From Candidatus Nanoarchaeia archaeon (lineage in GTDB: Archaea > Nanobdellota > Nanobdellia > Woesearchaeales > ARS49), in NCBI GenBank assembly GCA_041489925.1, contig JBGPSD010000004.1:25143-89142 (forward strand): a stretch of DNA of 64,000 nucleotides, written 5' to 3'. Made by a program: the position numbers and the translations under genes. The notes beneath the pieces were generated by a model. That model was not told where the DNA came from and made no database searches. It saw only the letters and a list, made by a program, of their open reading frames with translations. Positions 41,583-57,968 of this stretch are shown here, piece after piece; positions within the stretch are counted from its first letter, which is position 1, and each line of letters starts with the position of its first letter.

Positions 41583-41590
41583 TTTAAATA
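41583..41590 (+). promoter_or_regulatory. TATA box of the large surface-protein cluster (leaderless first gene)
   Basis: tttaaata is centred 27 nt upstream of the ATG at 41614. Confidence 0.5.
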
Positions 41591-41613: not shown

Positions 41614-43551
41614 ATGGGAAAAAAGAGGTTGTTGGCGCTAATTACATTTCTGGCTCTCCTAGGCGCATCTGCAGCAGCAGGCGCTACTGTTGCAGGATAT
41701 GCTGAAGAATACATTTATACAAACCCCGGATGCATCCCTTTTTGTTTTGGAAATAACAAAACATACGACCTTGGCGGAACATTCCAGATTTTTGAAGCGA
41801 CAAAAGTGGGTGGCCACTATAACCATGAGGCAGAGTGGTTTGACGGCGGACTTGCGCTCTTTGCTGACAATGTCCAAACAGCGACCTGGTCATTTTTGGG
41901 AGCTGCAAACAGCGCTCTGCAGACATATTACCATGATTTTAACGGCGCATATGCAGACCGCGTTGTTGCCTGCGGCTGCAGTTATGACTACCACCAGGGT
42001 ACCCACCCTTTTTCAATACGATTCAACAGGAATACCTTTGTCAGAAGGACAAATGTATTAGACGACCCAGACGAGCCGCTCGGTGAGGCTGGAAGCTTCT
42101 TTACTAAGTTTTCAAACCTGACCAATGATTCAGGATGGAGGATAAGAGTGGATGCTGTCCGCCCAGGCTCAATGGTTTGGCTTGGCGATGAGGAAAGCTA
42201 CACCACGCATGAAACCTCTGATGTGACTGCTAAAGTGTATGGCTGCGCAGACACAAACCAAAACCAAATCTGCGATGTTAGAGAGCCGAGCTTCATGTTA
42301 TGCAATGATGTGGGCGGCGACTGGTACAATGACTGGTGTTGCGGAACAAACTTCACAGAAGGATTTGTGAAATCAGTGCCGAATCTGACAACCCAGGTGT
42401 GCGCTCAATATGCATATCTTGGTAGCGCGTGTGTGCGTTGGATGACTGTTGTCGGTAACAAGAGCATTAATGCCATTTGCGGAAAGACTTCTGAAGGAAA
42501 ATGGAAGTGGGCTCCGCTTGATGAGTCTGGTGAGGTTTTTGACCTGCTCGGCTGGCCAAATGCGTCTGTTGTTTCTGATGGAACAAATCTTTACAGCTGC
42601 GGAAACCAGATTGAAAACTATACCGTGCCTGATGATGTTTACGGAGTGTGCGTTAAAACAGAGAGGCAAAGAGTGTGCACGCCTTCGTGGTTTGGTCAGT
42701 CATGTTCTTATCAGGATGTTTGCGTGAAAAAAGAGTACTTGTGGAGAAGCACAGTGCTTATCAACAGCCCTGCAACAACCCTGTTTGGGCAATTCATCAG
42801 TGTCGCTGTCGGCAATGCAAGGCATATGTATTCCTGCAAGGATAAGGTTGTTTACGAATGCTCTGGCAAGACAGGGTCTTTCTCAACAAACAATGGCGCT
42901 GAGATGGGCACAACAAACCCGAGCTTTACTAATGAAACATTTTACTGCGCATCTGACGGTGACTGGACAAAAGACCTTGACATAAAGGACAATGAGAGCT
43001 GCGAGGCAGCAGGATTTTCATGGACAGGCTCGCGCTGCTGCAGCGAGGCAGATGACCCTGCAGAATACTACAATGACCCCAAGTTCCCAAATGCAACAGG
43101 CGGCTGCTGGAACAAGATGTATGTCAGGTCAGGCGATTACGCAGTTACTGACAGGATTCTCAACTACAATGGCAAATTCTTCGGCTGCAGACTCAGCCTG
43201 ATAAATGATGCAATCCTGCTTAATCTCAAGGATTACCACGTGGATAACCTGCTTATTGACAACAGCATAACCCCCTGCGGCATGGTGCTTATGGATGCCC
43301 AGCCAGGGGGAATGCCCCACGCAAAGTGCCAGCCAAATGGCCAGTGGATGTTTACTGACGAGCCTGGCGGAGTAATCAATAAGAGCATAAAGTGGGCAGG
43401 CCTTGTCGGATCGGGAATAGCATTGTCAGGCTGTTGCGCTCCAGACCAGTGCTGGAATGGCACAAAATGCCAGAAGCTCGGTACTTATTACAGGCTTGGC
43501 GAAGAGGGTTTCATTTGCAAGATGCTGCCGTCAACTTCAATGCCGCCATAA
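41614..43551 (+). CDS. Large secreted Cys/Trp-rich protein (645 aa to the first stop) of unknown family
   Basis: Sec signal peptide MGKKRLLALITFLALLGASAAAG. It has more than 40 Cys and many N-x-S/T sequons. The reading frame stays open and motif-bearing for 56 codons past the TAA at 43549-43551. Confidence 0.7.
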   Translation: MGKKRLLALITFLALLGASAAAGATVAGYAEEYIYTNPGCIPFCFGNNKTYDLGGTFQIFEATKVGGHYNHEAEWFDGGLALFADNVQTATWSFLGAANSALQTYYHDFNGAYADRVVACGCSYDYHQGTHPFSIRFNRNTFVRRTNVLDDPDEPLGEAGSFFTKFSNLTNDSGWRIRVDAVRPGSMVWLGDEESYTTHETSDVTAKVYGCADTNQNQICDVREPSFMLCNDVGGDWYNDWCCGTNFTEGFVKSVPNLTTQVCAQYAYLGSACVRWMTVVGNKSINAICGKTSEGKWKWAPLDESGEVFDLLGWPNASVVSDGTNLYSCGNQIENYTVPDDVYGVCVKTERQRVCTPSWFGQSCSYQDVCVKKEYLWRSTVLINSPATTLFGQFISVAVGNARHMYSCKDKVVYECSGKTGSFSTNNGAEMGTTNPSFTNETFYCASDGDWTKDLDIKDNESCEAAGFSWTGSRCCSEADDPAEYYNDPKFPNATGGCWNKMYVRSGDYAVTDRILNYNGKFFGCRLSLINDAILLNLKDYHVDNLLIDNSITPCGMVLMDAQPGGMPHAKCQPNGQWMFTDEPGGVINKSIKWAGLVGSGIALSGCCAPDQCWNGTKCQKLGTYYRLGEEGFICKMLPSTSMPP

Positions 43552-43722
43552 GAACAGCCGCCATCAGAACAATGTCAGCAGAACCACGACTGCCCTGCAG
43601 GGCAATACTGCACAAATCACGAGTGCGTCAGTGGCCCGCTTCCAGATACCTGCGCTAACAATAATGCGTGTCCTTCAGGATATCACTGCCAACAACACGA
43701 ATGTGTTGAAGAGCCAGTATAA
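43552..43722 (+). other. In-frame open extension after the TAA stop, encoding two Cys-motif repeats (possible readthrough, recent nonsense mutation or assembly variant)
   Basis: Translation is EQPPSEQCQQNHDCPAGQYCTNHECVSGPLPDTCANNNACPSGYHCQQHECVEEPV then TAA. It contains no ATG/GTG/TTG start. It ends 9 nt before the next gene's start, matching the tight spacing of the rest of the cluster. Confidence 0.5.
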
Positions 43723-43731
43723 AAAAGAGGA

Positions 43732-44931
43732 ATGATGGGAATGAAATGGGTTTGGGCATTGGTATTTTTGATACTTGCAGTTCTGCCATTTGTTGCCGCA
43801 GAAGACCAGGCTGACTGGTTCGCAATTCCGATACGCTACTCTTGGGACCTGTCAATGGGTGGCTCGTGCGAAAACAGCACCCAGTGCCTCATACACCTGC
43901 TCGGAAACGACACTTATGACGGCGACATCCAAAGATATTTCCAGCAGTTGGAAACACCCTGGCTCGGTCCGAGGTGTGCAAACAATTCGCAGTACATACT
44001 TGATTATTCCTGTGATGCAGGAAACTGGACAACACGCACAAAATATCTTGCGCTTTACCTTTTGAAATATGCTGAGGCAAATTCAGCAGGCGCATTCACA
44101 CTTTACTGCGACACTTACGAGCGCGTGCTGAACCAGTTCAGTTATTATGTGAAGAACGTGCTTGTGTCTGATTATTTCGGAGATGCCTGCGTCATTCAGG
44201 GAAAGACTGTTCCCTGCATTAACAAAATCTGCGTGCTGAGAACGCCCCAGGTTGTTGCAATCGGGACCACAATCAATGGCCCAATCAATGACCCTGCCCG
44301 CTCATTCCTGCTTGCGCTGAATGAAAGCACTTCATTGTGCGACGGCCACGATGCTGAGCACGGAACTGATTTCACAAAATGTGACGCTGAAAAGCCGGTG
44401 TGGTATAACCCCTCATTGCAGGCGGTTGTCTGGCTTTCAGAAGGCTCCCTTGCCCCGCCAACAGCAGACACCAGGGCAAAAATCACAGCGCCAATGGGCA
44501 GCATGAGCTCTTATGTGATGAATGTCCTGCACAATGAGGCAAATCCCGGCATGAATTTCATTTATTTCCCGCGCACAAGATTGTTCAACCACATTTATGT
44601 TGCGCAGAACGGCCCGCGTGGGATATTTGGCTTCCTTGAGGCAGGCTTGCGCCCCGAGTACACGCTCTTGCCTGACAATGAGTCAGAGCCAATCCCGCTT
44701 GACTACATCGGTGTGCGTTACACAGGAATAGAGCTGTATGAACACAGCAACCTCACCTGCCTGAATCTCATCAAGAGGTATGACAGAAATGCATTCTGCG
44801 AAAACCAGACAGCAACAGGATTCAATGTAATCGCAAGGCACCGCTGCGAGCCTGGCTATGAGGATCGATGCAATGGCGCAAGCCCGATTGTTGGCGTGTG
44901 GCCTGCCTTGGCAGGAAAGCTGAGGCCATGA
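43732..44931 (+). CDS. Secreted Cys-rich protein (399 aa) of unknown family
   Basis: Signal peptide MMGMKWVWALVFLILAVLPFVAA, multiple sequons and cysteines, and SD agagga upstream. Confidence 0.7.
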   Translation: MMGMKWVWALVFLILAVLPFVAAEDQADWFAIPIRYSWDLSMGGSCENSTQCLIHLLGNDTYDGDIQRYFQQLETPWLGPRCANNSQYILDYSCDAGNWTTRTKYLALYLLKYAEANSAGAFTLYCDTYERVLNQFSYYVKNVLVSDYFGDACVIQGKTVPCINKICVLRTPQVVAIGTTINGPINDPARSFLLALNESTSLCDGHDAEHGTDFTKCDAEKPVWYNPSLQAVVWLSEGSLAPPTADTRAKITAPMGSMSSYVMNVLHNEANPGMNFIYFPRTRLFNHIYVAQNGPRGIFGFLEAGLRPEYTLLPDNESEPIPLDYIGVRYTGIELYEHSNLTCLNLIKRYDRNAFCENQTATGFNVIARHRCEPGYEDRCNGASPIVGVWPALAGKLRP

Positions 44932-46244
44932 AAATGAAAGCGCAGCTTACGCTGATGATGCTAATGGGGCTTGTAATGCTTATCGCGGTTGGAATTGTTT
45001 TGTACATCGGCGGGTCTTCAATGACAAAAAGCACAGAGCGCGGAGCTGAGCAGCAGCGTTTGAGCCAGTCTGCAATCCAGACAATCAGGGATTATGTCCA
45101 CTCGTGCCTTGACGCAACGACAACTGCTGCATTGGACCTTATCGGAAAGCAGGGCGGAGTCCTCTACAGGGCGCAGGGCGGCTTGACTCCTGATATCCTG
45201 CCTTCAGACCCGCAGGGCGGGCGCCATGTTATTTATGACGGGCTGAATGTCAGCTACCTCATCCGCAGGCCTGGCCAGAATGTTGGCAGGCTTTACTTTG
45301 CAGAGCCCCCTGATTATCCATGGGTCACGTTCCCGTATGTCCTTAACAAATCAGACATGTCAGTCATGAGGACAACATACACTGGCTACTTTGGCATATC
45401 GCTTTTGCCCCCGCTTTTCAAGCCAGGCAAGGACTCCATCCAGGAACAGCTTGAATCATACATCAGCTTTAACCTTCCGCGCTGCACAGACTGGAGCTCA
45501 TTCAAGGGGCTTTCAATCACTGCTGACAAGCCAAATGTCTCTGTAATAATCGCAGAGAACAGGACGCAGATTGAAACCGAGCAGTATTTCTCAGTGGTTG
45601 CGAACTGGCAGGTGAACATCACTGACAGTTCCACAGGTTCCAACACCACACTTGACATGTTCTCGCGCGGTTATCCTGTCCACCTCGCAAAATTCTATGT
45701 TTTCGTGCAGAGCCTGATTTACAGCGAGATAAATGATTCGTCGTTTGACCCGCTCTCGCAAAGCTCGCCTGCAAGCCCCGTTTTTGTTTTCAAGGACATT
45801 TTCAAGAATCCTGAGGATGAGGGCGCTGATGACCTGATTATTGTAAAGGATGCAGAGTCAGAGTTGCGCGGCAAGCCATTGGAATTCAGGATACTGAGGC
45901 AGAACCGCTATCCTGCGCTCTTCTGGATAAACCAGTCTGACATCAACAGCTATGCGTTTTACAGGATGGGCGAATGCCCAGCAGAAGCGCAGTCAATATT
46001 CCTCGAAGGCAACCAGCTCAAAATCACTTATGCAACAGACTCTCCATATGAATGGTCTGGCACGCTTTCAGCAATTGACCCTGATGAGGACAATGTCAGC
46101 TACAGCATCAAGCCTGTGGACGGAAAAATAGACGCCCCGCCAAATGTCGCGCTGTTCATGCTGTATGTTTATGCCTCTGACGGCGGAAACACAAAGGATT
46201 ACCAGATTGTAAACCTGACACTGGCAGGTTGTCCTGAAGAATGA
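44928..46244 (+). CDS. Pilin-like protein with a class III signal peptide (438 aa)
   Basis: Internal ATG at 44928, overlapping the upstream stop as ATGA. The N-terminus is MKMKAQLTLMMLMGLVMLIAVGIVLYIGG. Confidence 0.6.
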   Translation: MKMKAQLTLMMLMGLVMLIAVGIVLYIGGSSMTKSTERGAEQQRLSQSAIQTIRDYVHSCLDATTTAALDLIGKQGGVLYRAQGGLTPDILPSDPQGGRHVIYDGLNVSYLIRRPGQNVGRLYFAEPPDYPWVTFPYVLNKSDMSVMRTTYTGYFGISLLPPLFKPGKDSIQEQLESYISFNLPRCTDWSSFKGLSITADKPNVSVIIAENRTQIETEQYFSVVANWQVNITDSSTGSNTTLDMFSRGYPVHLAKFYVFVQSLIYSEINDSSFDPLSQSSPASPVFVFKDIFKNPEDEGADDLIIVKDAESELRGKPLEFRILRQNRYPALFWINQSDINSYAFYRMGECPAEAQSIFLEGNQLKITYATDSPYEWSGTLSAIDPDEDNVSYSIKPVDGKIDAPPNVALFMLYVYASDGGNTKDYQIVNLTLAGCPEE

Positions 46245-49200
46245 GAAAACTTTTGCTTATCGCGGTGGCTGCAGCGTTTTTCTACATGGCACTCTTTTCC
46301 CAGCAGGCATCCGGCCAGGAGCAGGGATGCTGCTGCGAGCCGATTTATCACCAGGGTGTCATTGAGGAGCGCTCTGCGTGCGAGGCAAAAGGATATAACT
46401 TCACAGCAGAGCTTCCTGCTGAGGTTGGTGAAAGCTGCGACCCAATCTGTGATTCAAAATTCGGCATTCCAATCATCATAACCCCGCCTGCTGACTGCGA
46501 GTCCCCGTTTTTCAACCCTGCTCCAATGAGTGTGGTTGCAAAGGCAGTCAAGGGAAAGAAGCAGATCAGGCTAATCTACACTGTTCCGTGTCCGATGCAG
46601 GCAATCGCTGTTAACATCTCGCGCTGCACAGGTGATGATTGCGAGGACTTTTCCCAGATTGCCCAGATGTCGCCCACAGGGGTTTACACTGACGCATCAC
46701 CTGAGCTTCTCTGGAACACCCCTTACACTTACATGGTTGTCATCACCTCGCGGATTTCAGGCGCTTCAGAGCCAGGTTATGCAATTGGCAATGCTGGTGA
46801 CATTGAATGCTGGTATCAGGGATTTGACAAGTTCTGCATTTCAGATTACTACTACACCCGCTTCCAGGAATATTTGTCAATGTACGGCTACTATGACACC
46901 CCTGCAGATGCATTCGCAGGCGATTTACAGTCTTCTGTTGAGCTGACATTTGCTGACAAGTTTAATACCGGGAGATACTGCAATGACATCAACCTGCTCA
47001 GCGACACTGGCTTAAGCTGCCCTGAAGGAAAGAAGTGCGTCTCAGGAAAGCTCGGGCTTGCGTGCATCACTCCAACACTCTGCGAAGGCGGCGGATTGTT
47101 CGGGCTTTACTCATCACCTGAAACCTGCGAGGGAACAGAATCTGCGAAGAAGTACTGCTTCTTTGACCGCTCGCACAGTTCTGTTGACAGGTGCTACTCT
47201 TGCAGCCCGCAGATGAGCTGCGCTGACTACAGGTCAGAGGGCGCGTGCAACCGCGACAACTGCTTTGCAGGCAACTGCTCATGGAAGCCTGTTTTCCCTG
47301 ACATCGGAATAGGAGTCTGTGTTGACAGCAGGTTCCCAAACTGCGCGTGGTGTACAAAGCAGGGCACAGACGGGCTTGAGAATGCAGATGCTTACAATGA
47401 AGTGTTTGACCAGTGCACTGCAAGGAAATCAATAGCGCTCACTGTTCCAAATTATCTTTGCACATTTGACAAGAACGCCCAGGAAAGCAATGGCTGTGAC
47501 GCCACTGCCTGCATGGATTACAATGACACTGACTGCGGCTCGCCTGCAGGAGGCATTCAGCTTAATCCTGACAACTCGCTTGAGGTTGGAAGCACTGACC
47601 CGTGCAGCATAAAGGTCTGCCAGCTTCAGTCTGGCATTGGCTGCCTGAAGAATGCTGACGGAAACGGGCTCTTTGACTGCGGCATAAAATCTGATGACCG
47701 AAGGCAGTGCGAGCTTGACCATTATCCGCCGAACACGACTTTTGTCGCAACATCTTACAAGCCAAACCGCATGGACTGGCTCGAGGCAAGGATGCTTGAC
47801 CAGGTGAATGGCACTGCAGATGCGTATTACATGGAGGGCAAGCCAGGTTACAGGCTGAGGGTTTGCGTTGACAGCGAAGAAACACCCTGCGCTGAAGCCA
47901 CAACATTTGCCGAGACAAATCTTTCCTTGCTGAACTTCAATGACCTTTACCTGCAGGCAGGCAGGGATGTGCTTGCCACGATGTCCGACGGCGAGAACAC
48001 GCTGAAATATTATGGCGTTGACCGCAGCAACAACCCAGAGGTTGTCAAGGAAATGACAATACTTGCCTGCGACAAATGCCAGGGGCCGAAAGTGCTTGGC
48101 ATCAATGTCACCCCGAGCAAAAGCTATGAAGGGAAGTTTTACACAATATCCGAAATTCCAGTAATAACTGTCGCGTTCAATGAGCTTTCAACCCTGACCA
48201 CTGCCACGCTGTCAATCGGCAACAAGGTGATGCCTGTAAACGTCATGCCTCTTGGAGGGGCGAATTATGATTACACTTTTATCCCGATAAACACGCTTGA
48301 GGATGGCGAATACCTGCTGGCATTTAATGCAAAGGACAGCAATGGGCGGCTTATGGACTTGCCTGGCTCTGCAATTATTGTTGTTGACACAACCCCAGGG
48401 GATGTTACAATAATTCCGCGTGACGGCACTGTCATCAATGAAACATCAGTTCAAATCTCTTTCACCTTCAATCAGCCTCCTGTCAGCCTGCTTGGCGCCT
48501 ACCTTGACAATGAAGTCTGGATTAGCAAGTATGCCACGAAGAAAAAAATAATGAACCTGACATCAAGCCTTGTGGAAACAGAGCCAAATAAGGTCTATGA
48601 CACCACTGTCGATGAGCTTTACGGCGGAAAGAAGAACATCAGGGTTTATGCAGAGGACTTGGCAGGCAATCCTGTAATAGGAAAGTCAAGCTTCTGGATT
48701 AACAGCGGCCCATTGCAGATTAGGATGCGCGAGCCGAGCTGGGGGGTAAGCGCAACATACGTGTTTGACATCGCGATTGACACATCAATAGCTGCCACCT
48801 GCAAGTATGCATATGACCTGCCTGCGCCTGTTCCTGTTGCGGCGTTTAATGACTTCCTTGCCCCATTCCCAGAGGAAACAGAGGTTGTCCACAAGATTCC
48901 CGGATTTAACAAGATTTCTTTCGGCGACCTGAAAGCGCACAAGCTGAGTGTTTATTGCAAGGCAGGGACCAATATATCTGTGGAGACCTTTGAGCTACGC
49001 GTTGACCCAAGCCCGCCAACCATCAAGTCTGCTTACGCAGACCCTGCTGTCATAATCGAGCGGAGGACTCCAAGCGCAGACATATTCACAACATACCTGA
49101 AGGCTCAGACAGATGATGACGGCTTCTGCAGGTACAGCCTCGAGAACAGGCCGTTCATACTTATGGAAGGGCTGTTCTCAGGCTTTGACGAATACCCCAA

Positions 49201-51319
49201 GAAATCTCACAGCGCTGAAATAAACGTAACTAAAGACATGACGTCATACACTTATTATGTTGCCTGCAAGAACACTGCAGAGCTGCCTTCTGCAACAGTG
49301 CCTGTCAAATTCAGCGTTGACACAACAATACCATTTGCGATAACAAGCCTCACCCCGCCATACTCCAACTCAACAGAATTCAGCATCGCCCTGCAGACAA
49401 ACAAGCGCGCATTATGCTACATTGCAGAAGACCCTGAAGTCACTCCCACTTTCATGGGATTGATGGGTCATTCGCACGTCTACCCTGTTGAAGTCAATAA
49501 GTCAGGCAATTATTCCTGGTATGTGAAGTGCAGCACTGGCGCAGGAAGCGAGGTTGCTGATATCTGGATTCCTGTGCTTGTTGACACAACCCCGCCCGTA
49601 ATGCTGTACGTGAATGACAGTTCCAACCTGGCTGAGACTCCTGATGTCTCTTACTTCCTTGACCAGCTGATGGTAAAATTCCTTGGAATTGACAATGAGA
49701 CTGCTGTTAATGCGTATTATTACCGCCTGCAGACTTTCTTCGCGAACGCCACAATCCTCAACTGGACTCTCAGCACAAACACAAACGGCACAGCATTTTA
49801 TGTGACTGGGTTGAACCTCACAGATGGCAACAAGTACAGGTTCGAGGTCTATCCTGTGAACATTATCGGGCTGCAGGGCGGTGCAAAGCAGAGCGATGGT
49901 GTGACAATTGACTCAACCAAGAAGCCTGCTGACTGCGTCAATGACATTCAGGATGGAAATGAAACAGACCTTGACTGCGGAGGACCATGCCCTGGCTGCA
50001 ATGATGGCGGCAAGTGCAATGCAGACACAGACTGCCTGTCAGGATTCTGCAACAGTGGACTCTGCGCACTGGTCGGCTGCGATGATGTTGCAAAGAATGG
50101 CAATGAAACAGATGTTGACTGCGGCGGAGGAGTGTGCCTGCCGTGCGGAATGAACAAGAGCTGCGTGCAGGATGCTGACTGCGCGAGCGGCAGCTGCAAT
50201 TATGGCACGTGCGGCGACCCGATACCATGCTCAGACGGCTTGCTCACAGGAACAGAATCAGACATTGACTGCGGAGGCTCATGCCCGAACAAGTGCGGCG
50301 AGGGAAAGAACTGCCAGGTGCCTTCTGACTGCGCAGGCGCACTGCTTTGCATTGACGAAACCTGCCAGGGATTGCTCGACAGCGACAATGACGGCGTTGA
50401 GGACGCAAAGGACAAGTGCCCGAACACGCCCACCGGTGAAACAGTTGATGAAAACGGCTGCTCTGCTTCGCAAAGGTTCACCTGCGGCGATGAGATATCT
50501 GACGGCTGGAGGATAAAGTACTTTGGCAGCGTGCTTTGCGATGGAGACGGCGCCCCTGATGCAGACCCTGACAAGGACGGCCTTACAAATGTTGAGGAAT
50601 ACAGGGCGCGCACTGACCCGGCAAACGCAGACACTGATGGCGATGGATGGAATGACAAGGTTGAGCTTGACAAGGGCTATGACCCTCTTGACCCTGCTTC
50701 GCACCCGCCAAGCAAGGTGCGCATTTTGCTCTGGACTCTGCTCATACTTCTTTTGCTTGCAGTTCTGGGCGTCGGAGGCTGGCTCGGCTACCAGTATTAC
50801 ATGGAGAAGAGGCTTGAAGCCCTTCCGCCTTCAATACCCGCAAAGCCAGAAGCCCCTGAGCGCAAGTACAGGAAGTGGCCTTCAATAATTGAAAAGCTGC
50901 GCAGGATAGCGCGCAAGGAAGAGCCTGGTGTCATTGACCGCGACTGGGTATCGCTCGCAGAGCTTTCAGAGCGCCTGAAGGAAGGGAAAGTGCACGTGCA
51001 CAAGGATGTCTTTGAACGCCTTGAGGGCCTGATAAGCGGAAAGATTCCCAAAGAGGAGACAGAAAGCATCCTTGAGGCAATCCAGAAGGCGCCAAAGGCA
51101 TTCAAGCTTTTGCGCAGGATTTCATTTGAGAAGCTCTCCCCTGCTGAAAAGGAGTTTGTGCGCAAGCGCCTTGCATTCCTGAAGTCAGGAAAGCTCACAT
51201 CAGCAGAGCTTGAGGAAGTGCTCACAAAGCTGCGTATAACCGCGGCATATTACAGGACTCACAGGGCAGAGCTTGAGCGCGAGCTTGAGGAATGGCTTGA
51301 TGAGCGGAGGCACAAATGA
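46241..51319 (+). CDS. Giant type-I membrane surface protein (1692 aa): signal peptide, Cys-rich region, at least 5 Ig-like modules, 3 Cys-knot repeats, TSP3-like Ca-binding repeats, TM anchor and a charged cytoplasmic tail
   Basis: ATGA overlap with the upstream gene. Recurrent VDTTP-type module boundaries are IVVDTTPGD, RVDPSPPTI, SVDTTIPFA, LVDTTPPVM and TIDSTKKPA. Three repeats of NGNETD.DCGG.C..C....C...DC..G.C....C are present. DxDxDG motifs are DSDNDGVED, DPDKDGLTN and DTDGDGWND. The TM segment ILLWTLLILLLLAVLGVGGWLGY is followed by ~170 aa of K/E/R-rich tail. Confidence 0.8.
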   Translation: MRKLLLIAVAAAFFYMALFSQQASGQEQGCCCEPIYHQGVIEERSACEAKGYNFTAELPAEVGESCDPICDSKFGIPIIITPPADCESPFFNPAPMSVVAKAVKGKKQIRLIYTVPCPMQAIAVNISRCTGDDCEDFSQIAQMSPTGVYTDASPELLWNTPYTYMVVITSRISGASEPGYAIGNAGDIECWYQGFDKFCISDYYYTRFQEYLSMYGYYDTPADAFAGDLQSSVELTFADKFNTGRYCNDINLLSDTGLSCPEGKKCVSGKLGLACITPTLCEGGGLFGLYSSPETCEGTESAKKYCFFDRSHSSVDRCYSCSPQMSCADYRSEGACNRDNCFAGNCSWKPVFPDIGIGVCVDSRFPNCAWCTKQGTDGLENADAYNEVFDQCTARKSIALTVPNYLCTFDKNAQESNGCDATACMDYNDTDCGSPAGGIQLNPDNSLEVGSTDPCSIKVCQLQSGIGCLKNADGNGLFDCGIKSDDRRQCELDHYPPNTTFVATSYKPNRMDWLEARMLDQVNGTADAYYMEGKPGYRLRVCVDSEETPCAEATTFAETNLSLLNFNDLYLQAGRDVLATMSDGENTLKYYGVDRSNNPEVVKEMTILACDKCQGPKVLGINVTPSKSYEGKFYTISEIPVITVAFNELSTLTTATLSIGNKVMPVNVMPLGGANYDYTFIPINTLEDGEYLLAFNAKDSNGRLMDLPGSAIIVVDTTPGDVTIIPRDGTVINETSVQISFTFNQPPVSLLGAYLDNEVWISKYATKKKIMNLTSSLVETEPNKVYDTTVDELYGGKKNIRVYAEDLAGNPVIGKSSFWINSGPLQIRMREPSWGVSATYVFDIAIDTSIAATCKYAYDLPAPVPVAAFNDFLAPFPEETEVVHKIPGFNKISFGDLKAHKLSVYCKAGTNISVETFELRVDPSPPTIKSAYADPAVIIERRTPSADIFTTYLKAQTDDDGFCRYSLENRPFILMEGLFSGFDEYPKKSHSAEINVTKDMTSYTYYVACKNTAELPSATVPVKFSVDTTIPFAITSLTPPYSNSTEFSIALQTNKRALCYIAEDPEVTPTFMGLMGHSHVYPVEVNKSGNYSWYVKCSTGAGSEVADIWIPVLVDTTPPVMLYVNDSSNLAETPDVSYFLDQLMVKFLGIDNETAVNAYYYRLQTFFANATILNWTLSTNTNGTAFYVTGLNLTDGNKYRFEVYPVNIIGLQGGAKQSDGVTIDSTKKPADCVNDIQDGNETDLDCGGPCPGCNDGGKCNADTDCLSGFCNSGLCALVGCDDVAKNGNETDVDCGGGVCLPCGMNKSCVQDADCASGSCNYGTCGDPIPCSDGLLTGTESDIDCGGSCPNKCGEGKNCQVPSDCAGALLCIDETCQGLLDSDNDGVEDAKDKCPNTPTGETVDENGCSASQRFTCGDEISDGWRIKYFGSVLCDGDGAPDADPDKDGLTNVEEYRARTDPANADTDGDGWNDKVELDKGYDPLDPASHPPSKVRILLWTLLILLLLAVLGVGGWLGYQYYMEKRLEALPPSIPAKPEAPERKYRKWPSIIEKLRRIARKEEPGVIDRDWVSLAELSERLKEGKVHVHKDVFERLEGLISGKIPKEETESILEAIQKAPKAFKLLRRISFEKLSPAEKEFVRKRLAFLKSGKLTSAELEEVLTKLRITAAYYRTHRAELERELEEWLDERRHK

Positions 51320-51834
51320 ATAATCGTGCGCAAATGATAGGCCAGGTTTTCATCTTCATCATAGCAGGGCTTGTCTTCGTGCTTATCCTTGGCTATGGCT
51401 ACAAGGCAATAATGGGCTTAATGGAAAAAGGCGAGAAGGTCCAGCTGATTGACTTCCGCAATAAGCTTGACTCCTCAATCAACATCATAAAAAGGGATTA
51501 TGGGAGCGTGCAGCGCGTTGACCTTATTGTGCCTTCAAATACAGATGAAGTCTGCTTTGCGACTTCTGACAAGAATGATGTGCGCTCGGGCGAATGGGAA
51601 AAGAATTTCCAGGAAGAGCGTCCATTGTTTTACGGCGCTTGGGTAACAGGCACTGAGAATGTCTTCTTTGTGCCAAAACAGTCCACTCCAATACCTGAAA
51701 AGGATATTGTCGTTGACCCTGAAGGCAAGGGCTATCTGTGCGTCAATGCTGCAGGAGGCAGGATAAGCCTGCGCATGGAGGGCATTGGAAGCAAGGTGCT
51801 GATAACAGAATGGCCTGTGCAGGGGGCAGAATGA
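51316..51834 (+). CDS. Pilin-like protein with a class III signal peptide (172 aa)
   Basis: SD ggagg and an ATGA overlap with the giant gene. The N-terminus is MNNRAQMIGQVFIFIIAGLVFVLILG. Confidence 0.6.
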   Translation: MNNRAQMIGQVFIFIIAGLVFVLILGYGYKAIMGLMEKGEKVQLIDFRNKLDSSINIIKRDYGSVQRVDLIVPSNTDEVCFATSDKNDVRSGEWEKNFQEERPLFYGAWVTGTENVFFVPKQSTPIPEKDIVVDPEGKGYLCVNAAGGRISLRMEGIGSKVLITEWPVQGAE

Positions 51835-52913
51835 GCAAGCGCGCGATTGAAATGCAGTTCAACTGGATTTTCATCCTGATAGCAGGCGCTGTCATCCTTG
51901 CTTTCTTTTTCAACGTTGTGCAAAAGCAGCGCACGCTCAGCGAGGAAAAGCTTTCAATAAAGCTCGCATCGCAGATGGACGCTATTTTTTCAGGCGCAAT
52001 AGAAAGCAAGGGCACAATTCAGCCGCTCGCAACCCCCCAGCCAGGGATTGCGTTTTCCTGCAGTGATACCTGCGTCTGCAAATACCACGTAGGCAAAAGC
52101 GGAATAGAGTTTAATGACAAACTGATTTTCGCGCCGCCCTTAATCAAGGAACAGGACGCAAGGGCGTGGGCTGTTGAGTGGAAGCTGCCATTCCGCATTG
52201 CAAACTTTTTGATGCTCACAAATCCCGCAATAAAGTATTACCTTGTTTATGATTCTGCAAACCCGCTGTCAGCGCAGGCTTTCCAGCGCATCAGCAAAGG
52301 GCTGCCAAAGGAAATCAACAGGGAAACAATCTCATCCCCTTCAGGAGCAGGGGATGTTTCACCAGGTGGTTATGTGCAGACGCGCTTTGTTTTCATCGGC
52401 ACATCAGAGCCTGACCTTGGCAATCTCAGGATGGAATTTCAGAGCGAGGATGTTTCAGGCGTTTGGCTGGATGACACCCTGGAGAAAGTTGTGTTTTACG
52501 AGAAATCAGACCCTGACAGGCTTGAATTCAACCAGTACCCTTCGTCGCTTGCAGGCGAGGAGACTGCTTATGCTGCAATATTTGCCGCAGACCACATGAT
52601 GTACAACTGCATGATGGAGCGCGCATTTGACAAGCTCGGCGCAATAGCAGGCGTGCACGAAGCCCGCGCCCGTGCTTTGCAGGAAACTATGGGCGCGCTT
52701 GACACTCCGCGGCTTGACTGTGTTGGCGCTTATGACCCGATTATCACATCGCTTGCGAATATGAGGCAGAAGGCAGTATTGCTTGGCACTTCCTTTTCCC
52801 AGGAAGCCGATGCGCAGGGCGCAGGAGCCCTTGCTGGAATCCTCGGAGTCCAGACAGAGCTTAACACCCAGAATACAAACCTGATAAAGCAGAACTGCCC
52901 GGAGATTTACTGA
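51831..52913 (+). CDS. Pilin-like protein (variant class III signal, 360 aa)
   Basis: Internal ATG at 51831 overlapping the upstream stop (ATGA). The N-terminus is MSKRAIEMQFNWIFILIAGAVILAFFF. Confidence 0.55.
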   Translation: MSKRAIEMQFNWIFILIAGAVILAFFFNVVQKQRTLSEEKLSIKLASQMDAIFSGAIESKGTIQPLATPQPGIAFSCSDTCVCKYHVGKSGIEFNDKLIFAPPLIKEQDARAWAVEWKLPFRIANFLMLTNPAIKYYLVYDSANPLSAQAFQRISKGLPKEINRETISSPSGAGDVSPGGYVQTRFVFIGTSEPDLGNLRMEFQSEDVSGVWLDDTLEKVVFYEKSDPDRLEFNQYPSSLAGEETAYAAIFAADHMMYNCMMERAFDKLGAIAGVHEARARALQETMGALDTPRLDCVGAYDPIITSLANMRQKAVLLGTSFSQEADAQGAGALAGILGVQTELNTQNTNLIKQNCPEIY

Positions 52914-53395
52914 TGAAAAAAGCGCAGATACAGATGTTTGAGACTGTTGGCGTGCTTGTGGTATTCTTCTTCCTGCTTGTTGCCGGCGCAGTGTTTTATT
53001 TCAACATCCAGAAGTCATCAATGCAGAAGGAGCTTGTCCAGCAGGCTCAGCTCAGGAGCCTGCAGTCAGCCCAGCGCGCTGTCTTTTTGCCAGAGCTTGA
53101 CTGCAGCTTTGCCCGTGTGACGCGCGACAACTGCTTTGACCGCTTCAAGATCGCGGCATTGCATGAAATTATCGCAAATGATGACCACACGCGCCAGGTT
53201 TATACCCGCTCTTTCGGATATGCAAACATCTCTGTAACAGAGGTCTTTCCAGGCTCTGGGACGACTGTGATTTACGACTATCCGCCTGAGGAATACCGTG
53301 GCGTACTGAAGTCGCAGCTGCCTGTCCTGCTTTATGACCCTGTGACATGGGATGCTGCATTTGGAATAATGGAGGTCACAACATATGCGTCGTGA
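52913..53395 (+). CDS. Pilin-like protein with a class III signal peptide (160 aa)
   Basis: TGATG overlap. The N-terminus is MKKAQIQMFETVGVLVVFFFLLVAGAVFYF. Confidence 0.6.
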   Translation: MKKAQIQMFETVGVLVVFFFLLVAGAVFYFNIQKSSMQKELVQQAQLRSLQSAQRAVFLPELDCSFARVTRDNCFDRFKIAALHEIIANDDHTRQVYTRSFGYANISVTEVFPGSGTTVIYDYPPEEYRGVLKSQLPVLLYDPVTWDAAFGIMEVTTYAS

Positions 53396-53876
53396 TAAGC
53401 GCGGCCAGATGGAGATAATGGGCCTGGCAATAATAGTGATACTTGTTTCCCTTGCGATGCTCTTTGCAGTGCAGTGGATGCTTAAGCCTTCAACAGCAAC
53501 TGTCCAGAAGACAAAGCAGTCTGTTCTAGCAGCAAGCCTGCTCACCACAATGGTCGGCACAACAACAGACTGCAACAAGCGCACAGTTGGCGAATTGCTT
53601 GGCGACTGCGCGCTCACGCAGGGTGCGACAAAATGCGCTGACATGACATCCTGCGATTATGTGCGCGGGGTAATGGGCAGCATCTTTAACGCGACAATGA
53701 AGAAATGGAATCTTGATTATTATTTCCACATCACCGGCGCCTCTTCTGTTGAGGGCATGAAGTTCGGAAGCGGCTCCACACCGCAGCCGTGCAAAGGCGC
53801 AAAGCAGGGCAAGGAATACCCCCTTGTCGTAACCCAGACATATGAGCTCAAGCTCTACCTTGATATCTGCGGGTGA
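53385..53876 (+). CDS. Pilin-like protein with a class III signal peptide (163 aa)
   Basis: SD ggaggt lies 8 nt upstream, and the gene overlaps the upstream gene by 11 nt. The N-terminus is MRRDKRGQMEIMGLAIIVILVSLAMLFAV. Confidence 0.6.
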   Translation: MRRDKRGQMEIMGLAIIVILVSLAMLFAVQWMLKPSTATVQKTKQSVLAASLLTTMVGTTTDCNKRTVGELLGDCALTQGATKCADMTSCDYVRGVMGSIFNATMKKWNLDYYFHITGASSVEGMKFGSGSTPQPCKGAKQGKEYPLVVTQTYELKLYLDICG

Positions 53877-53924: not shown

Positions 53925-55823
53925 ATGGGGCTGTGGGACAGGATAAAGCGGCTTATTCCAATCGCGCTTTTTGCAGCCGGAGCCACGTATTTGCTTGCCA
54001 ACCGCCCGCAGGTGGTTCCTCCAAATCCGGCATATTCTGTTAATGAGCAGGCAGAGAGGTCAAGAAGGGGTGATGAGAGATTTTGGAAATTTGTTTTGTA
54101 TGGCACAGCGCTTTCCGTTGGTGCGCTTGGCGCCACGCATGTTATCCAAAGAATGAAAGGGAAAACGCCATCATTTTTACAGCCTGCTGTTGAAAAACCA
54201 GGACTGGCAGGCATTGCCGCAGGGGCATCATACGGTCTTGCTTACTATTCCCAGCTGCCAAAGCAGGAGGATGCGCCTTATGCGCTCGGCATTGCAGCAA
54301 TGTCAGGCATTCTTTCTTATATTTTATCTGCAATATGGAGCAACTACAATCCGCCTTATTTAATTAACCACGCCAAAAACATTTACTGGGCGTTCCCGCT
54401 GGTAAGCCTCAAGGACCCTGCAAAGAAACAGGCAATTCTTGAAAAACTAAGACCAGGGCAGGCAATCCCTGTTAAGTTGGACATTGAACTTGTTGACTTA
54501 TTGTTTGAGCAGGGCAAAGTTGATGAGGCATGCAATCTTCTTAAGGACACAGCAAGGACTGCTGCAAAGGCACTTCCATCCACAGATTTTGAGCGTTATT
54601 TTACCCTGCCGCTTTCATCTGAAATAGTCAGGGGGAGGGCTGGCTCAAAGAGCCCGTTTAGCCTGATGTGCGAATACCTGCGCCAGGGCGACCTTGAAGA
54701 GGCGCTTTCAGCAGCAGACAATTTCGCGGCTGGGGAAAAAACACCAAGCAGGCTGGCTGCGCGGGCTTATGCAGTCCAGTCAGTGGCTGAAATGCTTCCT
54801 TCGCTGAAAGGGATTTTTCCGCATTTGTTGCTCAGGGAGACTGAGCTTGACGAACGCACCAGCCGCGCATGGAATGATGCCATCGGTGCAATCCTGTCAG
54901 ACCCGTCGCGCGAGCAGAAATTCCGCGTGATGGGCGAATCACGCAATGAAGTGCTTGAGTATGCCGCAAGCGAATTCCTCAAGGGTCTGCTCGTGTTTAA
55001 GCGCTGTGATGCAAGGCAGGGCTCAAGGCTGGTGCAGGAGCGTGAGAATATTATTTCCCTGAAAAACTCATTGGGGGACAGGATTGTGCAGTCAATCGCG
55101 TATGTTGAGCGCGATGGCAAGGCGTATCATGTCCTGAAGCACGGCACTTCCCGCACTCTTGAGGATGTTATGCGCACAGGCTCTCCTGAAGAAAAGCTAA
55201 AGTGCATGGACGAAGCTGCCCGTTTGCTCGCGAAAATACATCAGAGTATGATTCCTGAGCCGCAGGTTATTGCATGCGAGTCATATTACCAAAACAGGCT
55301 TTCATCCTGCTTTTATGACCAGCTTGCGAACAGCCCGATGTGCAAAGAAATTCCTTCATCAATAAAGGATGAGTTTCAATTTTTGGGCGAAAGGGTCAAG
55401 GACGAGCTTTCTGACGCGCCGACAGGCTGGTACAAGGATGCAAACCCGAGGAACTGGCTTGTTGAGGACAATGGTAATGTTGTGGCGATTGATTTTGAGC
55501 ACCGCATAAGGCTTCCTGTTCTTTTTGACCTTGTCAGCCTGCTTGAATTCGGCCCTGTGCCTGCGTCAACTGAGATTAAGGACAGGGTAATTGAGTATTA
55601 TCTTGGCGAATTCTACTCCATTAGCAAGGCTCCTATGAAAAAATTCATGCGGCACTACAAGATTGCAGCCCTCCAGCGCCACCTTGAACTTGCAGGCTAC
55701 AGGGTAAGGGACAGGGATGCAAAGGCAGCAGCATTCCACATTGACCGCGCACAGTCATACGCCTATGAGCTTGGCGAGGATATATTGGCAGAAAAGCTTG
55801 GCAAGATAATCATAAGTGCATAA
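53925..55823 (+). CDS. Membrane-anchored protein with a C-terminal kinase-like (aminoglycoside/choline kinase fold) domain
   Basis: There are about 4 N-terminal hydrophobic helices and a helical middle region. The C-terminal motifs YKDANPRNWLV (D-x4-N catalytic loop type) and VVAIDFEH (metal-binding D) are typical of the APH/ChoK protein-kinase-like family. Confidence 0.55.
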   Translation: MGLWDRIKRLIPIALFAAGATYLLANRPQVVPPNPAYSVNEQAERSRRGDERFWKFVLYGTALSVGALGATHVIQRMKGKTPSFLQPAVEKPGLAGIAAGASYGLAYYSQLPKQEDAPYALGIAAMSGILSYILSAIWSNYNPPYLINHAKNIYWAFPLVSLKDPAKKQAILEKLRPGQAIPVKLDIELVDLLFEQGKVDEACNLLKDTARTAAKALPSTDFERYFTLPLSSEIVRGRAGSKSPFSLMCEYLRQGDLEEALSAADNFAAGEKTPSRLAARAYAVQSVAEMLPSLKGIFPHLLLRETELDERTSRAWNDAIGAILSDPSREQKFRVMGESRNEVLEYAASEFLKGLLVFKRCDARQGSRLVQERENIISLKNSLGDRIVQSIAYVERDGKAYHVLKHGTSRTLEDVMRTGSPEEKLKCMDEAARLLAKIHQSMIPEPQVIACESYYQNRLSSCFYDQLANSPMCKEIPSSIKDEFQFLGERVKDELSDAPTGWYKDANPRNWLVEDNGNVVAIDFEHRIRLPVLFDLVSLLEFGPVPASTEIKDRVIEYYLGEFYSISKAPMKKFMRHYKIAALQRHLELAGYRVRDRDAKAAAFHIDRAQSYAYELGEDILAEKLGKIIISA

Positions 55824-56709
55824 TCATCAGGGCGCCGTTCAGCTCAAATGTCTTCTCCGCGATGTCCTCAAGCCAGAAAAAAAGCCTTTGCTCTTCAGGT
55901 TTTGCCTTCCTGCCTGATTTTGATATCTCCTCAAGCAGCGGCCTCCGTCTTGCCACGAACTTGCTGAGCCCTGGCAGGCTGAACCTGTAGAAGCATTCGT
56001 AGAAGCTGTTGAGATAATCAGTCACCTGCGAGTAAATGCGCATGAATTCCTTGCTTGGCGCGAGCTTTTTTTGGGATGCAACCATGCTTATGTCGCTGTA
56101 CTTGTCGCTTATCTTCTCCAGCTGCTCAACAATGATGTAAAGCCCGGTGGCATTTGACGCCATGTTCTTGTTTATGAGCCTCCTGCAGAAGTCAGCGAGC
56201 TTGTTGACATCCTTGTCCCTCAGCACAAGGCGCTTCAGCCAGCCATAGTCCCTTTTCTGAAGGGCTGTTGAAATTTCAGACGCGTAATCTTTTATCACAA
56301 GGAACTGGCGCCTGAGGACTGCATCAAACTGCTCAGGGTTTGGCTGGGATATTTCACGCACGACAATGTGGTTTTTTCCGTGCTGGACAACCTCAAAGCC
56401 GGTGAATGCCTCGCGGATTACGCCATAGGCGGTTTCAAGCTCATCATTGCTGCTGAAGTGCACTGTGAATTCATCGTATCCTTTCTTGTAAAGCGCGCCC
56501 AGCACCCTCCTTATCGCGGGATTGAGCCCGGTTATGTCTATTGCCGCCTTGTTTCCTGCAGGCATGCTTGTGCTTTGCAGGACAAGCTTTCCCTCCTTTT
56601 CCTCGACAGAAATCTCATCACCCTTTCTTATGCCGTGCTGCTGCACCCACTTGCTTGGCAGGCTGACAAGAAGTGAGTTCTCCCCCAGCTTTATGACCTT
56701 GCGCCGCAT
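55810..56709 (-). CDS. AbrB/SpoVT-domain plus PhoU-like domain regulator
   Basis: The N-terminal MRRKVIKLGENSLLVSLPSKWVQQHGIRKGDEISVEEKEGKLVL is a swapped-hairpin AbrB-type domain. The remainder is helical and PhoU-like, as in archaeal 'phosphate uptake regulator' homologs. Confidence 0.65.
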   Translation of the reverse strand: MRRKVIKLGENSLLVSLPSKWVQQHGIRKGDEISVEEKEGKLVLQSTSMPAGNKAAIDITGLNPAIRRVLGALYKKGYDEFTVHFSSNDELETAYGVIREAFTGFEVVQHGKNHIVVREISQPNPEQFDAVLRRQFLVIKDYASEISTALQKRDYGWLKRLVLRDKDVNKLADFCRRLINKNMASNATGLYIIVEQLEKISDKYSDISMVASQKKLAPSKEFMRIYSQVTDYLNSFYECFYRFSLPGLSKFVARRRPLLEEISKSGRKAKPEEQRLFFWLEDIAEKTFELNGALMIMHL

Positions 56710-56774
56710 GGATGGAATTAGCTGTTCTCCGTATATAAAACTTGCGGCGTATAAGCGTATAAGGGAATATATAT

Positions 56775-56797
56775 GGTATATGGAAAAAGTATATACC
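56775..56797. promoter_or_regulatory. AT-rich inverted repeat ggtatat-N9-atatacc in the divergent promoter region
   Basis: Read directly. The 127-nt gap contains at least five TATA-like elements. The repeat lies 40 nt upstream of the Lrp-family gene. Confidence 0.3.
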
Positions 56798-56836
56798 CTT
56801 TCCGGATATATTACGGTCTATTGCGAGGTGATTCCG

Positions 56837-57313
56837 ATGGTTTCGAAAAAAGAACTGTTGATTGTGGCGAATTTGCGGAAGAACGCGCGGGTGAAGCTCA
56901 CAGAGCTGTCGCGCAGGACAGGCCTGCCGGTGAGCACGCTGTTTGACCGCGTCCATAATCTCTGCGATTTGGGCATAACAAGGCTCAGCGCACTGCTTGA
57001 CTTTCCCGCGATGGGCTTTGGGACCTGCGCCACGATTCTTTTGAAGGTCGCAAAGGAAAAGCGCGATGAGCTCAGGGAGCATTTGATTGTTGCCCATTCC
57101 GTGAATTCCCTGATGCGCGTCAATAACGGCTATGACTTCCTGGCAGAGTGTGTTTTCAGGGACATGCGCGAGCTTGAGGAGTTTTGCGAAAATCTCGAGC
57201 AGGCTTATGGCGTCAGGGGAAAGGAGCTGCATTTTGTAATTGAGGAGCTGAAGCGCGAGGGATTTCTTTCAGAGCCTTCGCTTGTCAGGCAGGTGGTAAA
57301 GGATGGGAAGTGA
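56837..57313 (+). CDS. Lrp/AsnC-family transcriptional regulator
   Basis: Internal ATG at 56837 after the SD gaggtga. The HTH is LLIVANLRKNARVKLTELSRRTGLPVSTLFDRVHNL, followed by a RAM-like C-terminal domain. Confidence 0.8.
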   Translation: MVSKKELLIVANLRKNARVKLTELSRRTGLPVSTLFDRVHNLCDLGITRLSALLDFPAMGFGTCATILLKVAKEKRDELREHLIVAHSVNSLMRVNNGYDFLAECVFRDMRELEEFCENLEQAYGVRGKELHFVIEELKREGFLSEPSLVRQVVKDGK

Positions 57314-57614
57314 GCGGCTTGGTCCTGCAGGGTTTGCGCTTGCCCTCACTATTGCAACTCTTGGCTCCGGGCTGATGATGTACCGCGGCTACTGCCACCT
57401 TGTCGCAACAGGTGTTTTTCCTCCTGTTGTGCGCAGGGAGGAGAAGCGCACCTTGTCTTACGAATCAAAAGAGGTTGAGCAGCTTGTGGAGAGCACGCTG
57501 TACAGGCGGGCTGTTCCTCTTGACGCAAGGGAAAGGGAGCTCTACAGGATGGACAAGGATAGGGATTGCAAAATCACAGAGAATGAAGTTATGTTTTATG
57601 TCAGGAACAAATAG
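57303..57614 (+). CDS. Small membrane-anchored protein with one EF-hand-like loop
   Basis: N-terminal hydrophobic segment FALALTIATLGSGLMMY. The C-terminal loop DKDRDCKITENE fits D-x-D-x-D-x-x-I-x-x-x-E, with Cys at the usual Gly position. Confidence 0.55.
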   Translation: MGSERLGPAGFALALTIATLGSGLMMYRGYCHLVATGVFPPVVRREEKRTLSYESKEVEQLVESTLYRRAVPLDARERELYRMDKDRDCKITENEVMFYVRNK

Positions 57615-57626
57615 GAGGTGTTTGAA

Positions 57627-57968
57627 ATGGATGAAACAATTGATTCAAAGGTGGAGGGTGCAAAAACTCCTTCAAAGATTGGAAGGTTTTTTGGCAATGC
57701 GGTTATGTACTTGGTTGTAATCGGCGCTGCAGGAGGAATTGGCGCAATCGGCAAGCAGGTGTATTATGACATCAAGGGAATCAGGCCTGTTGTGATGACT
57801 AATGATGAGTATAATCAGTTTTCAGAGATTATGTCTGACTTGAGCAAAGCAAGGCATGAATACCTCTGCGAGCAGGCAAGGTATATCCGCGAAACTGTTA
57901 TGCCCACTATTGACAAGAATGGCGATGGCCATATCACCCGAGAGGAAGTGGGTTTGCCTCCAAAATAG
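57627..57968 (+). CDS. Small membrane-anchored protein with one canonical EF-hand loop
   Basis: SD aggagg lies 8 nt upstream of the ATG at 57627. The TM segment is FFGNAVMYLVVIGAAGGIGAIG. The C-terminal DKNGDGHITREE is a textbook EF-hand loop. Confidence 0.6.
   Translation: MDETIDSKVEGAKTPSKIGRFFGNAVMYLVVIGAAGGIGAIGKQVYYDIKGIRPVVMTNDEYNQFSEIMSDLSKARHEYLCEQARYIRETVMPTIDKNGDGHITREEVGLPPK

Follow-up and report, generated by a model that had tools for sequence, protein, structure and literature searches.

A conserved operon of pilin-like and large Cys-rich surface proteins in Woesearchaeota as a candidate structural-gene module of an archaeal type IV filament system with Gln+1 pilins

A 64,000-nt stretch of the genome of a Candidatus Nanoarchaeia archaeon (GenBank assembly GCA_041489925.1, contig JBGPSD010000004.1, positions 25,143 to 89,142 of the forward strand; the whole stretch is referred to as the window in the following) contains a cluster of eight plus-strand genes at positions 41614-53876, designated A to H. 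The cluster encodes five pilin-like proteins (C, E, F, G, and H) interleaved with three large Cys-rich proteins (A, B, and D), and all of its genes are recorded as hypothetical without any annotation. A sequence-only reading had described the eight open reading frames (ORFs) with their lengths and overlaps, and a base-by-base check led to the same result. From B onward, all junctions are overlapping: by ATGA at 44928, 46241, 51316, and 51831, by TGATG at 52911-52915, and by 11 nt at 53385-53395. A TATA-like box (TTTAAATA, 41583-41590, plus strand) is located about 24 nt upstream of the start codon of A, and this spacing suggests that it is the probable promoter of a leaderless operon transcript. 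The window furthermore carries genes for PolD DP2/DP1, Cdc6, PheRS, RFC, and the archaeal RNase P subunit p30, while no RNA families were found in an Rfam scan of the window. The source is a DPANN archaeon of the Woesearchaeota type.

The pilin-like proteins are encoded on the plus strand by C (44928-46244; 438 aa counted from the ATG at 44928), E (51316-51834; 172 aa), F (51831-52913; 360 aa), G (52913-53395; 160 aa), and H (53385-53876; 163 aa). All five start with a basic leader that is followed by [AGS]-Q, or in F by the variant KK-[AG]-[FIV]-E-x-Q, and then by about 20 hydrophobic residues. With the predicted cleavage site marked by a slash, the N-termini read MKMKA/QLTL in C, MNNRA/QMIGQ in E, MSKRA/IEMQFNW in F, MKKA/QIQMFET in G, and MRRDKRG/QMEIMG in H; Gln5 and Glu10 are invariant in G, as are Gln8 and Glu10 in H, which also contains six Cys residues. 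Across about 25 species, every family retains a leader pattern specific to it, namely K-[AGS]-Q-[LIV]-[TS] for C, [AGS]-Q-x-x-[GS]-Q-[IV]-F-I for E, KK-[AG]-[FIV]-E-x-Q-F-[NH]-W for F, K-[AGS]-Q-[IV]-[QK]-[MI]-x-E-T for G, and [KR]-[AGS]-Q-[MT]-E-I for H. The motif [KR][AGS]Q with a subsequent hydrophobic stretch is present in 44 of 46 C, 20 of 26 E, 23 of 23 G, and 23 of 23 H orthologues and in all 20 orthologues of a small pilin family encoded downstream (see below), compared with only two of the 343 other ORFs of the same loci. Orthologues without [KR][AGS]Q retain [AGS]-Q, the basic residue being shifted by one position upstream. The Gln column is invariant in E (Gln6, 25 orthologues), G, H, and the small pilins, and it is universal in C.

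A basic leader ending with [KR]-[GAS] in front of about 20 hydrophobic residues is the hallmark of class III signal peptides and is found in C, E, G, H, and the small pilins as well as, in variant form, in F. The E, G, and H families resemble each other in hhalign comparisons within the leader and the helix only, which indicates that they are not recent paralogues. Such sharing of the leader region alone across different families is typical of pilins. The retention of this motif in five otherwise unrelated families over about 25 species strengthens the suggestion that the five N-termini are signal peptides of class III (prepilin-type) and that Gln occupies their +1 position. In Methanococcus maripaludis, Gln at this position of pilins is essential for cleavage by the dedicated prepilin peptidase EppA (PMC4390842), and the +1 Gln of Epd-type pilins is likewise present in the cluster. 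An assignment of E, G, and H as archaellum stator proteins of the FlaF/FlaG type was also considered and was dropped because no Arch_flagellin-type match was obtained.

AlphaFold2 models of C and F that were built on natural alignments are confident, and in both of them the hydrophobic segment opens a long N-terminal helix in front of a globular domain, as expected for pilins. In the model of C (predicted local distance difference test, pLDDT, 87), the helix comprises 71 residues (4-74) and leads into an alpha/beta domain and cadherin-like beta-sandwiches, in which a DPDED motif is invariant. In the model of F (pLDDT 92, predicted template modeling score 0.87), it comprises 51 residues (3-53) and precedes beta and alpha/beta domains and, at the C-terminus, a bundle of three helices. 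The globular domains had been said to match no nameable family, and this view persists after searches of families, PDB sequences, and folds, none of which yielded a match at threshold. In particular, nothing but noise was returned when PDB sequences were searched with family profiles of F, G, and H or with D alone.

The largest protein of the cluster is D (46241-51319, plus strand; 1692 aa), which consists of a signal peptide, a Cys-rich N-terminal region with a GCCC motif, Ig-like repeats, three CGGxC modules, TSP3 Ca-binding repeats, a transmembrane helix at residues 1493-1511, and a charged cytoplasmic tail of 181 aa. A single C-terminal transmembrane helix and a K/R-rich cytoplasmic tail of 130-270 aa are predicted in 26 of the 27 long orthologues, the exception being a 1396-aa protein (locus L020) that may be incomplete. 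Most orthologues of D score for an N-terminal signal peptide, and they contain 76-121 Cys residues, apart from one distant orthologue with 45. TSP3_bac is detected in 18 of 21 orthologues (best E = 1e-18) and bacterial Ig-like domains in 12 of 21, with the copy from the window staying below threshold. Based on this topology and these domain matches, D is predicted to be a membrane-anchored, Ca-binding, Ig-like stalk. It fits the S-layer-like, C-terminally anchored architecture of the arCOG05471 type in topology and Cys content, as an architectural match only. An archaeosortase-type C-terminal sorting signal was rejected for D, given that 130-270 aa rather than a few residues follow the transmembrane helix.

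The proteins A and B accompany D as secreted proteins, and Sec-type signal peptides are found in all three. Gene A (41614-43551, plus strand) encodes a predicted Cys/Trp-rich glycoprotein of 645 aa, in which the N-terminal part of about 400 aa is lineage-variable and the C-terminal part of about 200 aa is conserved. Accordingly, distant relatives can be aligned only from about residue 400 onward. The variable part harbors SdrD_B in one orthologue and Laminin_G_3 in another. Gene B (43732-44931, plus strand) encodes a Cys-rich protein of 399 aa. Most lineages encode A and B as one fusion protein, which had been overlooked in the sequence-only reading. The extreme C-terminus of B or of the A-B fusion (44890-44931 in the window) is formed by the near-invariant motif W-x-D-L-T-[SA]-K-L-R followed by 1-4 residues, with the W present in 37 and the R in 38 of 39 orthologues, and this motif looks like a docking strand or a sorting signal. 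Cys residues make up 5.0% of A, 3.5% of B, and 4.5% of D, and N-x-S/T sequons exceed the numbers in shuffled sequences in all three proteins (z = 3.4, 3.5, and 4.4, respectively), in agreement with their earlier description as Cys-rich and dense in sequons; sequons are enriched in C as well (z = 5.0).

In the window, A ends at an in-frame TAA that results from a 6-nt insertion (CCATAA, 43546-43551) relative to a locus with 96% identity (L003), where the ORF of A reads through to 689 aa. The segment behind this stop codon (43552-43731, plus strand), which had been regarded as a post-stop extension, aligns with genuine coding sequence of L003 and represents an in-frame remnant of the C-terminus of A. 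As its 59 codons, which include two Cys-rich repeats, have kept the reading frame without any damage, the TAA represents either a very recent truncation or a variant of the strain or the assembly.

A homologue search with C returned 39 proteins, all of them hypothetical, and the named organisms were always Candidatus Woesearchaeota. Look-ups of cluster members likewise gave 'Candidatus Woesearchaeota' as the only taxonomic information. When the alignment of C was scanned against one genome per GTDB species, 48 loci were obtained, which all belong to metagenome-assembled genomes (MAGs) of Woesearchaeota or 'Nanoarchaeia' except for one 2.6-kb contig binned as a bacterium. Many third-party MAGs with the cluster (L003, L007, L009, and others) bear the title 'uncultured Methanosarcinales archaeon', and the 2.6-kb contig sits in an 'Acidiferrobacteraceae' bin; both labels are apparently placeholders or the result of mis-binning. 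According to tblastn and ORF clustering, the gene order A/B-C-D-E-F-G-H is kept in relatives at 25-60% identity. Of 25 loci of sufficient length, 19 contain the complete set of D, E, F, G, and H, and N-runs, contig ends, or divergence account for most of the loci that lack the full set. The coupling is also kept, as most junctions in relatives overlap or have a gap of at most 30 nt. Conservation in related lineages had been named beforehand as a point at which the idea of a dedicated surface apparatus could fail, and the cluster passed it with this common gene order. The flanking genes in relatives are housekeeping genes, encoding MCM, TBP, RNase P p30, PheRS, spermidine synthase, AdoMet decarboxylase, an arginase-like protein, and similar functions. 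With its conserved order and these flanks, the cluster is therefore a core feature of this order that is inherited vertically, and it does not represent a mobile island. When 1.84 billion representatives were searched with an F-family profile, 1788 clusters (50% identity) were matched at E ≤ 1e-3, 770 of them also at E ≤ 1e-30, and no Pfam domain is on record for any of these F-family clusters.

A scan of the window for further leaders led to genes that had been missed in the sequence-only reading. Two small pilin genes are located downstream of H on the plus strand, at 58038-58343 (101 aa, MDKKA/QGLPITTIIIAILGLVVLVILF) and at 58474-58752 (92 aa, MKKA/QGLPITTIIIAVLGLVVL), and both are candidates for major pilins. 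Members of this family have about 92 aa, and their first 33 residues are near-invariant (KK-[AGS]-Q-S-I-S-I-N-T-I-I-I-A-A-I-A-L-A-V-L-V-V-L-F), followed by a short, variable, Cys-knotted C-terminus. In at least 12 distant relatives, one to three tandem small pilin genes lie directly 3' of H, and more pilin-like genes often follow. The near-invariant N-terminus, the variable Cys-rich end, and the tandem copies directly after H suggest that the small pilins are probable major pilins. The next gene in the window (58917-59837, plus strand; probable start MRRGEIG...) encodes a pilin-like protein of a family that comes after the small pilins in relatives, and a further pilin-like surface protein of 1083 aa with a KKG/Q leader and a hydrophobic helix is encoded at 60005-63256 (plus strand).

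Boxes of the TTATATA type are found at 57988-57995, 58408-58417, and 58778-58790, ahead of each small pilin gene and of the next pilin-like gene. They suggest that these genes are under the control of separate promoters, in contrast to the single TTTAAATA box of the genes A to H. An ORF of 37 codons for a small hydrophobic peptide (MKKEAVTYTLLLWLAMLLILFLIIISVM..., 58808-58921) shares an ATGA overlap with the probable true start at 58917, and genes for 50-55 aa are called at the equivalent place in the loci L051 and L052.

Between H and the small pilin genes, the region 53925-57968 contains, besides a gene for a kinase-like membrane protein and an AbrB/MazE-like gene on the minus strand, genes for an AsnC-like regulator and for two small proteins that carry EF-hand-like DxDxDG loops. 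The first of these genes (53925-55823, plus strand) encodes a protein with a hydrophobic N-terminal region and at least one transmembrane helix, and the C-terminal domain of this protein is kinase-like (APH-type). The gene is found behind H in the sub-clade of the window only; its product is a possible regulator, and its membership in the operon is uncertain. The same extended layout from H to the small pilins is found in GCA_019322895.1 (L052) at about 40% identity, and the insertion could therefore be a module with a regulatory role in this sub-clade.

These features lead us to interpret the cluster, with moderate confidence, as the pilin, adhesin, and anchor module, i.e. the structural genes, of an archaeal type IV filament system with Gln+1 pilins (Epd or 'system 1') that would be specific to Woesearchaeota-type DPANN archaea. 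This interpretation is based on the fact that five unrelated families in one operon share the leader, [AGS]-Q, and the hydrophobic helix alone, and that their order and tight coupling are conserved in 19 of the 25 sufficiently long loci. It is further supported by the requirement for +1 Gln in EppA processing in Methanococcus (PMC4390842), by the long N-terminal helices before globular domains in the models of C and F, and by the small major-pilin-type genes directly after H in at least 12 relatives. The TSP3 and Ig-like domains in D, the adhesin or lectin domains in A orthologues, and the sequon enrichment in A to D point in the same direction. Published models of archaeal type IV pilus loci include minor pilins, adhesins, an S-layer-like protein, and unlinked pilin sets (PMC4858521). 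In addition, system 1 of the type IV filaments has been placed in DPANN archaea (preprint 10.64898/2026.04.22.720090), and flaB/H/I/J/K have been reported for most Woesearchaeota MAGs of one study, in which 'archaellin type IV' genes were among the most expressed (PMC11606122).

According to this model, one leaderless transcript starting from the TATA box at 41583 would be translated by coupled re-initiation, which would lead to fixed, roughly equimolar amounts of the products. The N-terminal hydrophobic helix would insert C, E, F, G, and H into the membrane, where a class III signal peptidase of the EppA/FlaK/PibD type, encoded elsewhere, would cut after [KR]-[AGS]. The processed proteins would be minor pilins, and their N-terminal helices would form a defined complex for the priming, capping, or anchoring of a fibre. 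This fibre would be built of the small pilins (58038 and 58474), polymerised by a FlaI/PilB-type ATPase and a FlaJ/TadC-type platform protein that would both be encoded elsewhere. With its lineage-variable head and its conserved C-terminal docking motif, A/B is a candidate adhesin that could be held by the minor pilin complex. D, with an Ig-like, Ca-binding ectodomain of about 1470 residues, a single anchor, and a basic tail, would stay in the membrane of the cell itself as an S-layer-like stalk around the apparatus or bracing it. The likely role of the whole system is to attach the cell to a surface or to a host cell.

Of the points raised in the sequence-only reading, the class III leaders, the absence of known families, and the absence of assembly machinery from the window are supported, as is the conservation that it had named as a check, whereas the proposed parallel between the 1692-aa protein and PilY1 fails. 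A PilY1-type tip adhesin is a soluble protein with a C-terminal beta-propeller and no anchor. D is a predicted type I membrane protein with a transmembrane helix and a cytoplasmic tail, in which no signatures of PilY1, DUF2341, or vWA were detected, and it would thus not be able to ride the tip of an extended fibre as PilY1 does. The PilY-like adhesin domain DUF2341 is also absent from A, B, 21 orthologues of D, and 23 orthologues of A/B.

Several observations weigh against a pilus module. No T2SSE-type ATPase, searched for by Walker motif or Pfam, no T2SSF platform protein, and no A24 peptidase are encoded in the 64-kb window, as had been noted before, and the same holds for about 0.9 Mb of flanking sequences from the 48 relatives, to which the search was limited together with the window. 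The set of a clade 1 ATPase, two TadC-like genes, and EppA that characterizes Epd-type systems is accordingly missing from the window and the 48 flanks. None of the curated models for pilins, archaellins, or class III signals in Pfam and NCBIfam reaches its threshold with any protein of the cluster. The best sub-threshold matches are to BasB (19 bits at a cut-off of 230), which is a match of the N-terminus of G that covers the leader and the helix alone, and to UpsA/XpsI (E ~0.01). At the level of folds, Foldseek found no pilin among the matches of the C model, which comprised weak cadherin-like tandem beta-sandwiches (TM-score ≤ 0.27), and no pseudopilin for the F model, for which the best E-value against the PDB was 0.15 with a TM-score below 0.2 and BFVD yielded nothing either. 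According to a groundwater survey, DPANN archaea lack the components of type IV pili (preprint 10.1101/2020.05.14.094862). Moreover, the anchor and cytoplasmic tail of D are without counterpart in characterised pilus tip complexes, and the housekeeping neighbourhood and the order-wide conservation fit a constitutive envelope component equally well.

The main rival is a membrane-anchored surface complex without a fibre, in which the pilin-like proteins would be processed and remain membrane-bound or form a stub, similar to a pseudopilus or a bindosome, and would organise D and A/B into a docking plate or into a constitutive lattice of the envelope or S-layer-like kind. The present data do not separate this possibility from the pilus reading, and we regard it as a serious but clearly less probable explanation. 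It is favoured by D, with its type I topology and a cytoplasmic tail conserved in almost all long orthologues; the location of the operon amid MCM, TBP, and RNase P p30 genes with vertical inheritance across the order, the fixed stoichiometry suggested by coupled translation, and the lack of a linked ATPase are in line with it. The Sulfolobus bindosome provides a precedent for class III signal peptides on surface proteins that do not form filaments (PMC3047682). The bindosome itself, however, requires a pair of ATPase and platform protein, small major-pilin-type genes adjoin the cluster in many genomes, and no similarity of the cluster proteins to any S-layer family was found. A related but rather unlikely variant is a membrane-spanning contact organelle specific to Woesearchaeota, in which D would link the cytoplasm through its basic tail to a Ca-stiffened, Ig-like stalk of about 1470 residues, the five processed pilin-like subunits would form a membrane-proximal collar, and A/B with its lineage-variable head would be the host-recognition tip of a docking or feeding device that does not extend a fibre.

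Two further explanations appear improbable. The same pilin module could serve the uptake of DNA or nutrients as a competence pilus or as a pseudopilus similar to that of type II secretion systems (T2SS), with E to H as four capping minor pilins of the Com/T2SS kind. Four consecutive pilin-like genes (172, 360, 160, and 163 aa) followed by a small major pilin indeed recall the gene sets of the comGC-GG and gspG-K operons, and DPANN archaea lack many biosynthetic pathways. We nevertheless consider this unlikely, because F has no match in fold or sequence to GspK or any pseudopilin, no DNA-binding or ComEC-like component is encoded at the locus, and the large, sequon-rich proteins with Ig-like and lectin-type domains point to adhesion. 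The GspK/PilX type of large minor pilin, a pilin fold with an inserted alpha-domain, was examined as a candidate for F and rejected, as Foldseek against the PDB found no pseudopilin. Finally, the N-termini might be ordinary uncleaved signal anchors of unrelated membrane proteins without any link to type IV filaments, which would agree with the failure to reach a curated pilin model and with the lack of a peptidase gene in the window and the 48 flanks. This is the least probable of the explanations, since an anchor needs only charge and hydrophobicity and not an invariant [AGS]-Q in six independent families at 25-60% identity, since the small pilin-type proteins next door bear the same motif, and since background ORFs rarely do (2 of 343).

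The preferred reading as a filament module can be compared with several known systems. Makarova et al. (2016, PMC4858521) have modelled archaeal type IV pilus loci in which at least five minor pilins occur together with large adhesins, with small major pilins that stand alone, and with an 'S-layer-like' protein that is rich in Cys and anchored at its C-terminus, and archaeal ATPase/TadC pairs serve unlinked pilin sets (PMC4858521). The general architecture has thus already been proposed for other archaea, so that the novelty is lower than implied before, and it lies here in families without detectable relatives. The closest likeness is to the Epd or clade 1 loci of Methanococcus, Methanobacteriales, and Thermococcales (PMC4858521; preprint 10.64898/2026.04.22.720090), which share Gln+1 pilins, at least five minor pilin-like proteins per co-expressed cluster, paralogous small major pilins, large secreted adhesin-like proteins, and N-glycosylated components. 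In contrast to these, the woesearchaeal cluster has no sequence or profile similarity to the Epd families and no DUF2341 adhesin, its locus does not contain the ATPase, the two TadC genes, and EppA, the operon embeds a giant type I membrane protein, and the small pilins keep a Cys-knotted C-terminal domain.

The type IV pilus loci of Thermoproteales (subclades 4B/4D/4E; arCOG05471; PMC4858521) resemble the cluster in that a large signal-peptide protein and a large protein with a C-terminal transmembrane helix are combined with several small minor pilins, with conserved Cys residues throughout. They belong to another phylum, D has a long basic tail and TSP3/Ig-like repeats, and the woesearchaeal locus is unlinked from an ATPase; the likeness is one of architecture. 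In the bacterial type IVa tip complex (FimU-PilVWX-PilE with PilY1) and the GspHIJK tip of T2SS, four to five minor pilin-like genes, one of them encoding a much larger protein, are likewise co-transcribed with a gene for a large Ca-binding adhesin-like protein. However, D is anchored with a cytoplasmic tail and has no PilY1 domains, the fold of F is unlike GspK or PilX, and the woesearchaeal leaders are archaeal ([KR][AGS]/Q) and do not follow the Glu5 convention. The Sulfolobus bindosome (BasABC with BasEF) shares class III signal peptides on the organisers of a non-fibre assembly, as well as the weak match of the G N-terminus to BasB, whereas solute-binding proteins and a linked ATPase or membrane protein are missing from the woesearchaeal cluster.

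Apart from the region around A to H, the window contains a second surface-protein cluster on the minus strand (24918-30575). It encodes a pilin-like protein of 392 aa with an RGQ leader (29376-30554, minus strand), which was found by the leader scan, a 517-aa protein with five N-terminal transmembrane helices and no Pfam match, and three paralogous lipobox proteins of 307, 323, and 331 aa.

Woesearchaeota rank among the DPANN archaea of highest abundance and diversity, and to our knowledge none of them has been cultured. About 12 kb of presumably very small genomes are devoted to the cluster, and about 20 kb when the downstream pilins are counted. Its recognition as a module of pilins, adhesins, and an anchor provides targets for annotation models, metatranscriptomic markers, and imaging antigens, and the variable-head protein A may track host specificity. 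If the interpretation as a contact organelle were true, the largest uncultured order of DPANN archaea would possess a device for docking or feeding that is made from pilin parts.

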